This document shows positions 14,501 to 46,907 of a DNA stretch of 64,000 bases, piece by piece; position 1 is the first letter of the stretch, and the number at the start of each line of letters is the position of its first letter. Location: contig JADFYG010000018.1 of NCBI GenBank assembly GCA_015233155.1, forward strand, positions 11,000 through 74,999. Reading direction: 5' to 3'. This stretch comes from Candidatus Rifleibacteriota bacterium (GTDB lineage Bacteria > Muiribacteriota > Ozemobacteria > Ozemobacterales > Ozemobacteraceae). Under the pieces are notes generated by a model, which did not search any database, was not told where the DNA came from, and saw nothing but the letters and a program-made list of their open reading frames with translations. The position numbers and the translations under genes are program-made.

Positions 14501-14925
14501 CCGATGGGGCCATCACAAACACGGGGTCCTTTTCGCCAAGGTATTTTGGAGCTTACGTCAGGTATCTCTCCATTTGGGATTCAAGAAATCCCCCGAACGG
14601 TTGGTCTGACAAGTTCACGAATGGGAACAATGGGCTGGGTACGATGAATTTTGTTCCCAGGATCGATGGGCCGTTGAGTTCCGGTTTTCGAGTCGACTAC
14701 ACTCTCACCAACAACAGCGGGGCCAGTGTGAGTGGTTCGAAAGATATCAGCGGCGTGAACTGGGCAACGGAGGGTCGCTACTCCGGGCAAGGCTATGCCA
14801 ACGTATATTTCCAGTTCAACTACCCCTCAGCCACCGGCACATACAAGATGACCGCCTCGCTCATCGATTCCTATGGCCAGATCATTTCCACAATCGGCAG
14901 CGAAAACACCATCACCTTCCCCTGA
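11533..14925 (+). pseudogene. Large surface lipoprotein (~1130 aa if repaired) split into three ORFs by frameshifts at G10 (11908-11917) and C5 (13730-13734)
   Basis: Lipobox LSG-C. Track ORFs 11512-11937, 11891-13864 and 13588-14925 join seamlessly if G10 becomes G9 (INIGGG-HYGGFTDF) and C5 becomes C6 (WVYGRSPP-ASDSVEING). Contains Ig-like domains and a beta-helix-like C-terminus. Confidence 0.8.
13816..14521 (+). repeat. Near-identical ~169-bp intragenic direct repeat (13816-13984 and 14353-14521)
   Basis: Both copies encode ATLRG.A.LAVTGSLVNNGNISDGVGDWFYVYVKGDLTN.GSISNRSFITDGAITN; offset 537 bp. Confidence 0.9.
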
Positions 14926-16687: not shown

Positions 16688-16837
16688 TGCCGCTAATCGC
16701 GAAAACGCTGAATACGACAAATGATCAGAACAGTTTCACCCGATCGTGGACTTTCCAGTCCTTCTGACCCGCGATTGGCTATGCTGTTTATGCCGTTGGT
16801 CCAAGAATCTTGCGTCACCAGAACGAGGATGATAATA

Positions 16838-16847
16838 TGTATATACA
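16838..16847. promoter_or_regulatory. Palindromic putative operator of the third TA module
   Basis: Perfect palindrome TGTATATACA about 40 bp upstream of the antitoxin start. Confidence 0.4.
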
Positions 16848-16884
16848 ATAATGCGTCATTTAGGAAATCAGGAGGCAGCCATTT

Positions 16885-17139
16885 GTGACCACAACTATGA
16901 TAATTCGAATCGACGATTTCAAAAAGGAACGAGTTTCTCAACTGGCCAAACGGGAGGGCAAATCCGTCAGCACCCTTCTTCGGGAGTTAATCGACTCATA
17001 CCTGAGAGAGCGTGATGCATCCCTGTATATTGATGATCTTTGGCAAAGGATTGGCCAGAGAATGAAGGGCACCGGAATTGACTCAGAAGATAAAATTGAT
17101 CAACTGATTCATGAAGTTCGCAAGGATCGTCGCCGGTGA
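16885..17139 (+). CDS. CopG/RHH antitoxin
   Basis: MIIRIDDFKKERVSQLAKREGKSVSTLLRELID (RHH); 4-nt overlap with the PIN gene. Confidence 0.8.
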   Translation: MTTTMIIRIDDFKKERVSQLAKREGKSVSTLLRELIDSYLRERDASLYIDDLWQRIGQRMKGTGIDSEDKIDQLIHEVRKDRRR

Positions 17140-28809: not shown

Positions 28810-28822
28810 AGGTGAGGCCCTA

Positions 28823-28876
28823 AGCAACCATTTCGAAACAGCAAAACGTTGTCCTACAGCGAATTTCCCCGACCGG
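28823..28876. repeat. Degenerate half-copy of the palindromic element at 40592-40707
   Basis: 42/54 identical to 40654-40707 in an ungapped manual alignment. Confidence 0.7.
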
Positions 28877-40469: not shown

Positions 40470-40707
40470 AAAAGTGTGTGTTTGCCCTGGATGGATCCAT
40501 GGCCATTTAATTCTCACCAAGGCGCGACCGCCGAAGGTGTGAAAAAATGGTCCTTCGAAAAAAGTCAGGTTAGCCTTATTTATGAAAACAAGGTCGTGAT
40601 AATTCGCGGAAGGACAGTAGCGAAGCCGCCAGAAATGGTCTGACGAGGTGCTCAGCAACCATTACGAGACGACGCAGCGTTGTCCTGGAGCGAATTATCA
40701 CGACCGG
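40470..40707. repeat. Cluster of palindromic elements and MITE-end remnants
   Basis: 40470-40489 matches the right end of the 46277 element at 16/20; 40498-40515 matches the left TIR of the 55328 element at 17/18; perfect 16-bp IR at 40592-40607/40690-40705. Confidence 0.7.
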
Positions 40708-44940: not shown

Positions 44941-46146
44941 TTAGTAGAGAAGAAATTTCCGGCGGTTGGAATCGAACTTGCGCCAGCTGGATTCAAAATC
45001 AGCCAGAATCTTTTCCGGTGAGTCTTTGGAATCAAAAACCGCCTTATAGATGTTGTTCCCGACCATGAGCGCAGCCTCCTGCCCTTTCAGCAGGAAAGCG
45101 GCGGTCTTCTGGTCGCGCAAGGCGCAGACGACACGCACGAAGACATCCAGACTGCGCACATGGTGACGGTCGAGCACTTCTATACGGACTCCCTGACAAA
45201 CTTTGCCTGAATAGATATCATCTGTAGGAGTCCTGATCTCTGCGGTAAAACGCAGACCTGGAATAGCCGCTGACTCCAGGACTTGAAGCAGGCTTGTAGT
45301 TTCAAGCCATGGAGCCCCGAACCAAAGAAATGGCGACTCTGTACCTCGACCTACAGACATATTGCTGGACTCGAACAATCCTAATCCGGGATAGAGCAAA
45401 GCCGCGTCAAGGTTTCGGATATTGGGCGATGGTTTTACCCAGGGATAGCCAGTTTCATCGTAGAGCATGCAACGGGTCCAACCTTTGAGCGGGACCACCG
45501 TAAGCTTCAGTTTCAACTTCTTGAGATCCATATGCAGGCGGGCCATTTCTCCCGGAGTCAACCCATGACGAATGGGCACCGGAAAATAACCCGTAAACTC
45601 GTGCGCGTCCTCTAATACCGGGCCTTCAAGGATTTCACCGCCTAATGGATTGGAACGGTCGAGGACCACAAACTCGATACCACGTTTGGCGGCTTCCTCC
45701 ATGCACAGGCCCATGGTGCTCAAATATGTATAGAATCGAGCCCCCACGTCCTGAATATCGAAAACCAGTGCGTCGATTCCATTAAGCATCTCGTCAGTGG
45801 GTCTGCGGGTCTTCCCATAAAGACTATATACCGGGAGCCCCGTAGCAGTATCTGTAGCATTCCCGACAAGGGCGCCTCCGGTCTGGTCGCCGCGGAAGCC
45901 GTGTTCGGGGCTGAAGATGGCGACTAAAGATAGCTTCCTTGAAGCGAACAGCACGTCCACTGTGCTGCTGCCCTGTCTATCCACGCCGGTCTGGTTTGTG
46001 ATGACCCCAACTCGCTTGCCTTTCAGGACATCGAAGTCTGCCTGCTCCAACACATCTATGCCGGACATGAACGCGGCCGATGCTGCGTGCGCTCCCGCGC
46101 AACAGACCATAAACAAAAGAAGGATAGAGCAAGTCAAAACATTCAT
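44941..46146 (-). CDS. namZ: DUF1343 family protein (exo-beta-N-acetylmuramidase NamZ-like)
   Basis: RVGVITNQTG, FSPEHGFRG, VYSLYG, DIQDVGARFYTY, LDRSNPLGG, PIRHGLTPGE, SPNI, GRGTE.PF; signal peptide starts at ATG 46146. Confidence 0.88.
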   Translation of the reverse strand: MNVLTCSILLLFMVCCAGAHAASAAFMSGIDVLEQADFDVLKGKRVGVITNQTGVDRQGSSTVDVLFASRKLSLVAIFSPEHGFRGDQTGGALVGNATDTATGLPVYSLYGKTRRPTDEMLNGIDALVFDIQDVGARFYTYLSTMGLCMEEAAKRGIEFVVLDRSNPLGGEILEGPVLEDAHEFTGYFPVPIRHGLTPGEMARLHMDLKKLKLKLTVVPLKGWTRCMLYDETGYPWVKPSPNIRNLDAALLYPGLGLFESSNMSVGRGTESPFLWFGAPWLETTSLLQVLESAAIPGLRFTAEIRTPTDDIYSGKVCQGVRIEVLDRHHVRSLDVFVRVVCALRDQKTAAFLLKGQEAALMVGNNIYKAVFDSKDSPEKILADFESSWRKFDSNRRKFLLY

Positions 46147-46276
46147 AACGATTCTGGCACGTGTAATGCTTACATAAGTCAATATACTATTTTCTGAAGA
46201 AAAAGCAGATATTAGTTCCATAAATTAAGGCCGCCTCTTTTCGAAAAAGTATAACATGCATCCCTTCTTTCCGCGA

Positions 46277-46580
46277 CAGGGCAAACGGGAACTTTATCCA
46301 GGCTGGAAGCGGGCAGAGGGAGATTGCGAAGCGCGACTGTCGAGCGCTGCCGTGTCGGTCCGAGCCGTATGAGGAGGACATCCGAGTCGTTCTTCGCGGT
46401 CGCCCACGAAGGGCGGCCGCCTCGCAAGTCGCCAGGGATGGCGACTCTGCGGGGTTTCGAAGAACGACCGGAATGTCCCCGAATTACGGCGAGGGAACCG
46501 ACACAGCACGCGAGATCTGAGCGCGTAGCAACCTCCCTCTGCCCGTGCTCTGCGACAGCAAAAAGTTCCCGTTTGCCCTG
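46277..46580. mobile_element. MITE-like element with 19-bp terminal inverted repeats and a 10-bp target-site-like duplication
   Basis: TIR CAGGGCAAACGGGAACTTT (46277-46295) / AAAGTTCCCGTTTGCCCTG (46562-46580); flanks CTTTCCGCGA (46267-46276) and CTTTCTGCGA (46581-46590), 9/10 identical; self-complementary interior. Confidence 0.8.
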
Positions 46581-46676
46581 CTTTCTGCGACGCTCTATAC
46601 TCCTGACCAGTAATTATGTGTTAACTTGGTGGCATTATCAGATATCCCCTGAAAACAAGGGATCGGGAGGTGGGAA

Positions 46677-46907
46677 ATGGTTGAGGTAATCGTCTGTGTC
46701 GGCACCGATTGCTCCTATAAAGGCGGATTGCAGATTTATGATTTTCTCGAACATGATCCGAGCCTTGAAGGGCGTATAAACCTTGCCACAGCCAAATGTT
46801 TCAATCGTGCGTGCAAGCCGGATAATGCTCCCCTCGTCTCGGTCAATGGAAAGATTATCGGCCGCGCCACTCTGGACAAGGTTCTTGCCGCCATCACGGA
46901 GGGGTAG
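46677..46907 (+). CDS. Thioredoxin-like [2Fe-2S] ferredoxin (NuoE-like)
   Basis: VCVGTDCSYKGG...CFNRAC...P.VSVNG; 2 bp upstream of the hydrogenase gene. Confidence 0.82.
   Translation: MVEVIVCVGTDCSYKGGLQIYDFLEHDPSLEGRINLATAKCFNRACKPDNAPLVSVNGKIIGRATLDKVLAAITEG

Follow-up and report, generated by a model that had tools for sequence, protein, structure and literature searches.

A TwoAYGGAY-like structured core inside an ISAs1-type transposon shell in an Ozemobacteraceae genome

Correia elements of Neisseria, ERIC sequences and REPINs are short, noncoding, intergenic repeats able to form long hairpins and to influence how neighbouring genes are expressed. The present study deals with a 304-bp element at positions 46277-46580 of a 64,000-nucleotide stretch of contig JADFYG010000018.1 (the window; contig C95 in our numbering), located between the divergent gene namZ and an [FeFe]-hydrogenase operon in a bacterium of the family Ozemobacteraceae, which we take to belong to the candidate phylum Riflebacteria. 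The window is part of a 6.3-Mb metagenome-assembled genome (MAG; G000), which is 84% complete and consists of 185 contigs, broken by repeats.

Among the closest described systems, two kinds are introduced here. The first comprises the insertion sequences (ISs) of the ISAs1 family and their miniature derivatives, of which ISArsp11 is an example, with inverted repeats (IRs) CAGGGCTGATGCAAAGTCG, CAGGGC ends and a 10-bp direct repeat (PMC6305408). The second is the RNA motif TwoAYGGAY (Rfam RF01731), defined by two sequential hairpins with AYGGAY loops on a shared basal stem and rated as a probable RNA, not cis-regulatory (PMC2864571, Weinberg et al. 2010). This motif is reported to be highly multi-copy and variable and, in Pseudomonas fluorescens SBW25, associated with repetitive extragenic palindromic (REP) sequences, and the link between its mobility and any regulatory role has been called unresolved (2026 preprint, bioRxiv 10.64898/2026.09.22.753630). 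TwoAYGGAY RNAs have moreover been proposed in the literature as Csr/Rsm binders.

Miniature inverted-repeat transposable elements (MITEs) and TwoAYGGAY are thus each already known; here, a diverged relative of the motif lies inside a textbook transposon shell with an identifiable parent IS family. An ISAs1-type shell encloses a TwoAYGGAY-like core, and the family relations of both, the target duplication, an IS of the parent type and the same composite at a second locus were all observed. The element is very probably a chimeric non-autonomous transposon, a MITE of the ISAs1 family carrying a TwoAYGGAY-like rod as cargo. Its mobility is ordinary for an ISAs1-type MITE; its interest lies in the cargo, through which a widespread, unexplained class of multi-copy RNA motif is connected with a defined vehicle of transposition.

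ISAs1-type ends and copies of the element

An initial annotation of the window, made from its letters alone, had described the element as a MITE with perfect 19-bp terminal inverted repeats (TIRs) and a 10-bp flanking repeat. Both features are present as described (Table 1), the TIRs being complementary at 19 of 19 positions and the flanks agreeing at 9 of 10; for random flanks, the chance of 9/10 or more matches is ~3e-5. The mechanically listed open reading frames (ORFs) which overlap the element have no Pfam match, and the element is without a transposase gene of its own.

An IS with CAGGGC ends, which the annotation had recommended looking for, was found in another metagenome. Contig L245 (Ga0116154_10033381) carries a 1,266-bp IS bounded on both sides by the window TIR, with identity over 21 nt at the left end and 19 nt at the right, and its 400-aa ORF matches NF033564, the ISAs1 transposase model, with 422.7 bits and no other NCBIfam model. 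Given the NF033564 transposase of the IS with the same ends, ISAs1 and not IS4 proper is the partner family; the IS4-like partner suggested initially was accordingly rejected. It is extremely unlikely that the element was mobilised by an IS4-family transposase or, as in REPINs, by a REP-associated tyrosine transposase. IS4-family elements likewise make 9-12-bp duplications, a sister family of the core (family B, described below) is embedded in REP-like sequences and the genome encodes an IS200-like Y1 transposase (C16:5958-6317, 138.5 bits), yet the L245 IS is the sole IS found with these exact ends, the window element ends without the GTAG-type REP which occurs in pairs around family B, and the presence of Y1 does not track that of the rods (Y1 in 8/10 genomes having rods and in 21/41 lacking them). 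As a guide to the partner enzyme, co-occurrence was uninformative both for Y1 and for the ISAs1 transposase, the latter being encoded in 3/10 genomes with rods and 5/41 without.

Further copies were recovered by BLAST from the same genome. A second copy, comprising the right arm of the rod and the right end (139 nt, 91% identical), lies in a different outer flank and abuts a contig end (G000:C113:63897-64035), and internally deleted derivatives of the element are found on C122, C100, C150 and C108. Since the same combination occurs at a second locus, the rod and the ISAs1 end probably moved together. The genome was also scanned for pairs of CAGGG(C/T)(A/G)A ends whose 10-bp flanks agree at 8/10 positions or more; this returned 15 elements including that of the window, nine of them with a perfect 10-bp flank match. 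Among the others are members of a MITE family of ~157 bp and a resident ISAs1 IS. At least nine of these MITEs have perfect or near-perfect 10-bp duplications (e.g. C66:63184-63340, C113:16341-16500 and C160:3494-3660), and their TIR, CAGGGCAAACGCATTA, resembles the resident IS more than the window TIR does. This resident ISAs1 IS (L009; C36:850-2085) measures 1,236 bp, has the IRs CAGGGCAATCGCATTAAAAAGTT/CAGGGTGATTGTATTAAAAATTG and a perfect 10-bp duplication, ACAGATTGTC, and matches NF033564 with 396 bits. It has only CAGGGCAA.CG in common with the window TIR, the IRs diverging from nt 9 on. The ORFs flanking it resemble parts of another transposase gene, which suggests a nested insertion.

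Beyond this genome, the exact 19-nt window TIR was detected by a scan in 75 metagenome contigs. Besides L245, others of them contain a 148-bp MITE or a mini-element of 57 bp, the duplication measuring 10 or 9 bp. The 148-bp MITE with the same TIR is highly repeated in one Hainich groundwater metagenome (L221, L225, L248 and ~40 other contigs; ERZ1292630, ERZ1292633), where it is often placed at contig ends and contains two GAAA-loop hairpins.

The copies elsewhere, the CAGGG-ended relatives with their 10-bp duplications, the IS of the parent type and the precedent of ISArsp11 are the reasons for which the MITE reading is right; the original observation is confirmed as a whole and its interpretation supported. 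By analogy with the family, the TIR would be bound by a DDE transposase of ISAs1 type provided in trans, and staggered cutting of the target would then yield the 10-bp duplication. The shell amounts to ~36-40 bp per end, including the 19-bp TIR CAGGGCAAACGGGAACTTT. Such mobilisation in trans is what we infer for the element, no cognate IS having been assembled in this genome. It offers a concrete route of spread by ordinary DDE transposases, and suggests one way in which such motifs multiply in genomes.

Several results weigh against a mobile element. Only one complete copy of the composite of rod and ISAs1 shell is assembled, and no transposase with matching ends occurs in this 84%-complete MAG. 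A search for an empty site was negative: the metagenome collection does not contain the 35-mer of the right flank, and the closest ortholog of NamZ, at 65% identity, lacks synteny and has no hydrogenase operon beside it. The unoccupied namZ/hydrogenase allele is predicted to read ...CATCCCTTCTTTCYGCGACGCTCTATACTCC... Viral contigs, phages and plasmids gave no match.

The single complete copy and the lack of an empty site would also fit a resident structured small RNA (sRNA) gene of TwoAYGGAY/Csr type, immobile here, whose basal stem is formed by the TIRs and whose 9/10 flanking repeat is due to chance; the strong structure and covariation of the rod and its relatedness to RF01731, both treated below, point the same way. 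This explanation is nonetheless very unlikely. An ISAs1 IS and unrelated 148-bp MITEs of other environments have ends identical to the 19-21 terminal nt of the element, the 10-bp duplication fits that of 14 other elements of the genome, and the same rod and end recur in another flank on C113, with derivatives elsewhere. Moreover, a consensus scan revealed no sigma-70-like promoter upstream of the window rod and no terminator after it. The initial annotation had stated that a single-copy element with no empty-site allele, or a match to a known Rfam family, would speak against a MITE. BLAST returned further copies in the genome, so the element is not single-copy, yet no empty site; the interior resembles TwoAYGGAY, at a score below the threshold of that family. 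These outcomes do not exclude a MITE.

The rod core as a repeat family related to TwoAYGGAY

Within the ISAs1-type MITE, resemblance to ISs is confined to the outer ~36-40 bp of each end, and the 228-nt interior is not IS-derived. Among the 75 contigs sharing the TIR, only one has anything similar to the interior, which in that contig is not enclosed by the ends. Relatives of the interior are found among other repeats: its two-hairpin apex is 78% identical to that of family B, which counts ten near-identical copies in the same genome, and it shares 84-90% identity with the apex of repeats that form a family in another genus. From an alignment of three families a covariance model, R1, was built (209 positions, 75 pairs), to which the window core aligns over model positions 1-209 with 121.6 bits (E 1.3e-24). 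The R1 core was detected in 10 of 51 Ozemobacteraceae genomes, belonging to 7 of 15 genera and having 1-42 hits each, and in none of 36 other genomes of the phylum; this distribution is a lower bound, because the model rests on three subfamilies and strict filters were applied to large sets. Compared with every other core, that of the window shows an identity of only 39-55%, and with the cores of other genomes of ~50-55%. The cargo is one diverged member of an Ozemobacteraceae family of rod repeats, in which two hairpins in succession top a basal stem.

In related genera, sister copies are enclosed in other shells. In G005, the core is enclosed by TGACTACCGT... ends flanked by TA, and in G011 by CRGCAATTCTCGGTGAG ends, one of the three copies examined having a perfect 9-bp repeat. 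G009 and G015 have two further, different termini, and outside the core of family B are REP-like GGTAGGGCGSGACCGCCG sequences.

Reciprocal searches indicate that the interior is related to RF01731, mostly through hits below threshold. When RF01731 was run against the 51 genomes of the family, its two hits in G009 (35.9 and 30.6 bits) coincided with R1 hits, the better one, also given by an Rfam scan of that copy, extending over the whole length (E 2.4e-4 on 261 nt; gathering score 43 bits). One hit exceeded this cut-off, in G010 (50.8 bits), and R1 in turn recognises that locus on the same strand with 24.6 bits (E 3e-5). Features beyond the loops are common to the G009 copy and RF01731 in their alignment, including the GGAGC / GCGUA internal loops near the base. 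A GGA is present in the loop of hairpin 2 in all 12 subfamilies (CCA[N]GGA[W]GG), on a covarying stem, and in the loop of hairpin 1 in 9 of 12 (CAGGAWG), that loop reading ACGAW in the window, subfamily B and G011. Across the elements, GGA occurs 186 times vs 76 for TCC.

Membership of the window copy itself is contradicted by several observations. In an Rfam scan its best match was RsmW, which belongs to the clan of TwoAYGGAY, with a non-significant 18.3 bits (E 0.4); it remains far below the gathering score of RF01731; and its hairpin 1 loop, ACGAA, lacks GGA. The interior has been filed as a diverged relative of TwoAYGGAY and not as a member because the window copy falls short of the score and departs from the loop consensus. 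Since it resembles that family, it is regarded as cargo with its own evolutionary history and not as filler. The motif class is thereby extended to a candidate phylum where it had not been described before.

Additional observations concern the repeats surrounding these rods. REP-like doublets (GGTAGGGCGGCGACCGCCGGGCGCGCC ... inverted copy) are common in G000, e.g. at C150:~14630-14780, at C129:~16800-17000 and in the flanks of family B, whose rods are placed inside one of the two halves of a doublet, with what looks like a 5-bp repeat, CGCCG. This association recalls the one reported for TwoAYGGAY in Pseudomonas fluorescens SBW25. In the window, a partial right-arm remnant of a family-B rod is found at 28810-28871 (nhmmer E 1e-6), and a solo ISAs1-type right end, AAAGTGTGTGTTTGCCCTG, at 40471-40489. 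About 100 bp beyond the latter, at 40593-40702, lies a 110-nt internally deleted derivative of a family-B rod (R1 78.5 bits), so that ISAs1-type end and family-B rod classes adjoin again at 40471-40702. On metagenome contig L268 (Ga0116149_1007806), a diverged rod at 2059-2259 (R1 69.8 bits) directly adjoins a truncated segment of an ISAs1-type MITE; its opposite strand scores 34.4 bits with the Rfam two-hairpin motif Bacillaceae-1, for which the cut-off is 35 and whose loops read as the complement of AGGAY.

Two apparent peculiarities of the rods were set aside. Short 'apex-only' hits in G005, which seemed nested symmetrically about the tip, are assembly artefacts, every one being located at a contig end, and a parvovirus-like flip/flop of the tip was rejected, as the ten family-B copies share one tip orientation relative to their asymmetric arms. 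A scan of named genomes with a loose hairpin-2 pattern gave mostly chance palindromes.

Structural constraint and the CsrA question

The minimum-energy fold of either strand is a single rod topped by two apical hairpins. As RNA, the + strand reaches -205.3 kcal/mol (z -15.5) and the - strand -195.6 (z -14.2) in comparison to dinucleotide shuffles; as single-stranded DNA (ssDNA), the two strands reach -117.7 and -114.5. The inner stems named in the initial annotation are real, each within a longer imperfect pair of arms: the perfect 13 bp of 46310-46322/46533-46545 belong to a 25-nt arm pair with 88% complementarity, and the perfect 11 bp of 46386-46396/46458-46468 to a 33-nt arm pair with 76%. 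Of the apical hairpins, the first has the extent originally given to it, and the span proposed for the second (46427-46446) corresponds to the upper stem only of a longer hairpin (Table 1).

Selection on a fold, which the annotation had surmised, is supported by strong covariation in the wider family. For this test, 33 sequences were aligned to R1; fitting of the alignment to the model favours pairing, though the margin is very large. Standard pairs occupy 92.8% of cells, in comparison to 63% after shuffling of partners and 33-42% with partners slid by 1-3 columns, and this level of pairing is kept despite a sequence identity of ~50%. Two-sided changes occur in 69 of the 75 pairs, and the observed values were reached by none of 500 shuffles. 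The rod is under structural constraint, which may act at the RNA or at the DNA level, and selection on a single-stranded fold may be what maintains it.

The asymmetry between strands bears on the level of this constraint. On the model strand, purines make up 67% of the unpaired positions and C only 11.5%, in every subfamily, the forward strand scores ~180 bits above the reverse with R1, and the loop sequences and the bulged U of hairpin 2 are kept while the stems covary. As the subfamilies are homologous, the features they share are not independent observations. Neither of two marks of RNA selection invoked at first found support. The GGGA loop of hairpin 2 had been read as a GNRA loop, but relatives do not keep GNRA, the conserved sequence at that place being A(N)GGA(W). 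The mismatches compatible with G-U pairing had been taken as a hint of selection, and at family level G.U accounts for 1.9% of cells vs 1.2% for A.C.

These frequencies, together with 91% of paired cells being Watson-Crick, weigh against a role as RNA, as do the nearly equal folding of the + and - strands both as RNA and as ssDNA, the failure to predict any promoter or terminator inside the two related copies scanned and the lack of orientation bias relative to neighbouring genes among 11 copies in this genome. All of them speak for a rod kept purely at the DNA level, either as a long palindrome, cruciform or ssDNA hairpin which aids the MITE, for example by joining its ends, or by repair which homogenises the arms, with no RNA or host function; the patchy, multi-copy distribution is likewise typical of selfish DNA. 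The element would still be an ISAs1 MITE. We see in this a serious possibility, short of probable: homogenisation of the arms should erase asymmetries, yet the GGA loops (12/12 and 9/12 subfamilies), the bulged U and the internal loops rich in purines persist on one strand at ~50% identity, with the difference in R1 score between strands noted above, and the same core lies between unrelated termini, which is unexpected if any palindrome served.

At the RNA level, a possible role is an interaction with CsrA. The core CARGGAUG has been obtained for CsrA by SELEX, the CsrB repeat is CAGGA(U/A/C)G and dual sites are spaced by 10-63 nt (PMC7652899). In hairpin 2 of the window, CAGGGAUG fits the SELEX core, the tip loops of the family agree with both this core and the CsrB repeat, and where both tip loops have GGA they are ~29 nt apart, inside the dual-site range. 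Of the 51 family genomes, 47 encode CsrA. In G000, a fliW-like ORF, csrA (83 aa) and a long flagellin gene follow in a row at G000:C97:122736-126308, constituting a FliW-type CsrA module, and the flagellin leader has five GGA motifs, several of them A(N)GGA, including in the Shine-Dalgarno region.

It is tentatively proposed, as in the literature for TwoAYGGAY, that the + strand, if transcribed, would present a CsrA/Rsm-type GGA hairpin loop at the tip. The broader idea that TwoAYGGAY-type rods are CsrA-docking RNAs which spread as cargo in MITE shells of several transposase families, namely an ISAs1 shell here and shells with 9-bp or TA flanking repeats in sister genera, is rather unlikely. 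Were it true, every transposition event would place another CsrA-binding hairpin, or one more unit of a distributed sponge, beside arbitrary genes, and would do so in a phylum with a FliW-partnered flagellar CsrA. It would also explain the 'mobile-element-like expansion' of TwoAYGGAY, which is unresolved according to 10.64898/2026.09.22.753630.

Genomic setting and comparison with known systems

The initial annotation had placed the element between divergent namZ and the hydrogenase operon, less than 100 bp from the latter, and the measured distances agree. The start of namZ (44941-46221, minus strand) is 55 bp to the left, and the operon encoding a 2Fe-2S protein and the [FeFe]-hydrogenase starts at 46677, 96 bp to the right. 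By its insertion the element interrupts the divergent promoter region, and expression of the hydrogenase could change. More speculatively, the right end may provide the operon with a -35 element (Table 1). The TTGCCC-17-TATACT arrangement is no general feature of other CAGGG-ended elements, and promoter homing at a fixed distance was rejected, given that no enrichment of -10 boxes at a fixed offset was seen for 30 element ends of this genome.

Table 1. Features of the element and its flanks (window coordinates)
Feature	Position	Strand	Basis
Target-site duplication, left copy, CTTTCCGCGA	46267..46276	.	9/10 match to 46581-46590
Left TIR, CAGGGCAAACGGGAACTTT, ISAs1-type end	46277..46295	+	19/19 complementary to right TIR; 21 nt identical to left end of L245 IS
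Left linker between TIR and rod core; small local hairpin, unpaired with right linker	46296..46312	+	folds; outside R1 match
Rod core, TwoAYGGAY-like structured module (cargo), 228 nt; model sense is the + strand	46313..46540	+	R1 match
Apical hairpin 1, stem CGGTCGCCC/GGGCGGCCG, loop ACGAA	46397..46419	+	fold
Apical hairpin 2, loop AGGGAT (46434-46439) within CCAGGGATGG, conserved bulged T	46420..46454	+	fold
Right linker between rod core and TIR	46541..46561	+	folds; outside R1 match
Right TIR, AAAGTTCCCGTTTGCCCTG	46562..46580	-	19 nt identical to right end of L245 IS
Target-site duplication, right copy, CTTTCTGCGA	46581..46590	.	9/10 match to left copy
Possible hybrid promoter toward hydrogenase operon: -35-like TTGCCC in right TIR, 17-nt spacer, TATACT in flank	46573..46601	+	consensus scan, putative
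Extended -10-like box, TGTTATACT, upstream of namZ; insertion just upstream of the box	46248..46256	-	read from sequence, putative; not scored in consensus scan

With ISAs1 ISs and their miniature derivatives (ISArsp11, the L245 IS), in which target duplications of ~8-10 bp are expected, the element has in common the CAGGGC termini, the 10-bp duplication and 19-21 terminal nt identical to those of L245, and it is short and noncoding. Unlike them, it has an unrelated structured module as its interior, and no transposase with the exact ends is found in the incomplete genome. Correia, ERIC and REPIN repeats are comparable in that the window element is also short, noncoding, intergenic and foldable into a long hairpin. 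They bear no sequence relation to it and differ in ends, duplication length and partner transposase; in the rod family, moreover, the conserved part is the apex and not the termini.

The Csr/Rsm sponges (CsrB, RsmZ and RsmW; clan CL00106) likewise expose GGA in hairpin loops, and relatives of the window rod have CAGGA(U/A)G as CsrB does. In the rods, however, only 2-4 GGA positions recur across subfamilies and the duplex is very long and stable, whereas CsrA prefers short hairpins. Furthermore, no promoter or terminator is predicted for the window rod and the two related copies scanned, and the host CsrA is of the FliW-partnered flagellar type, for which the sources consulted describe no sRNA sponges.

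A counterpart of the cargo is TwoAYGGAY. Folds, consensus structure and covariation agree on a basal stem with two sequential hairpins, which have GGA-type (A)YGGA(Y) loops, and both have purine-rich internal loops of GGAAGC / GCGUAG type near the base, are multi-copy with strongly variable copy number and are associated with REP-like repeats. The window loops, ACGAA in hairpin 1 and AGGGAU in hairpin 2 (G for Y), differ from AYGGAY, and the basal stem is far longer, at ~100 bp. The motif was described from gamma-Proteobacteria, Clostridiales and gut metagenomes, whereas the host here is a Riflebacteria-type MAG, in which the rod lies within a transposon shell with defined TIRs and target duplication.

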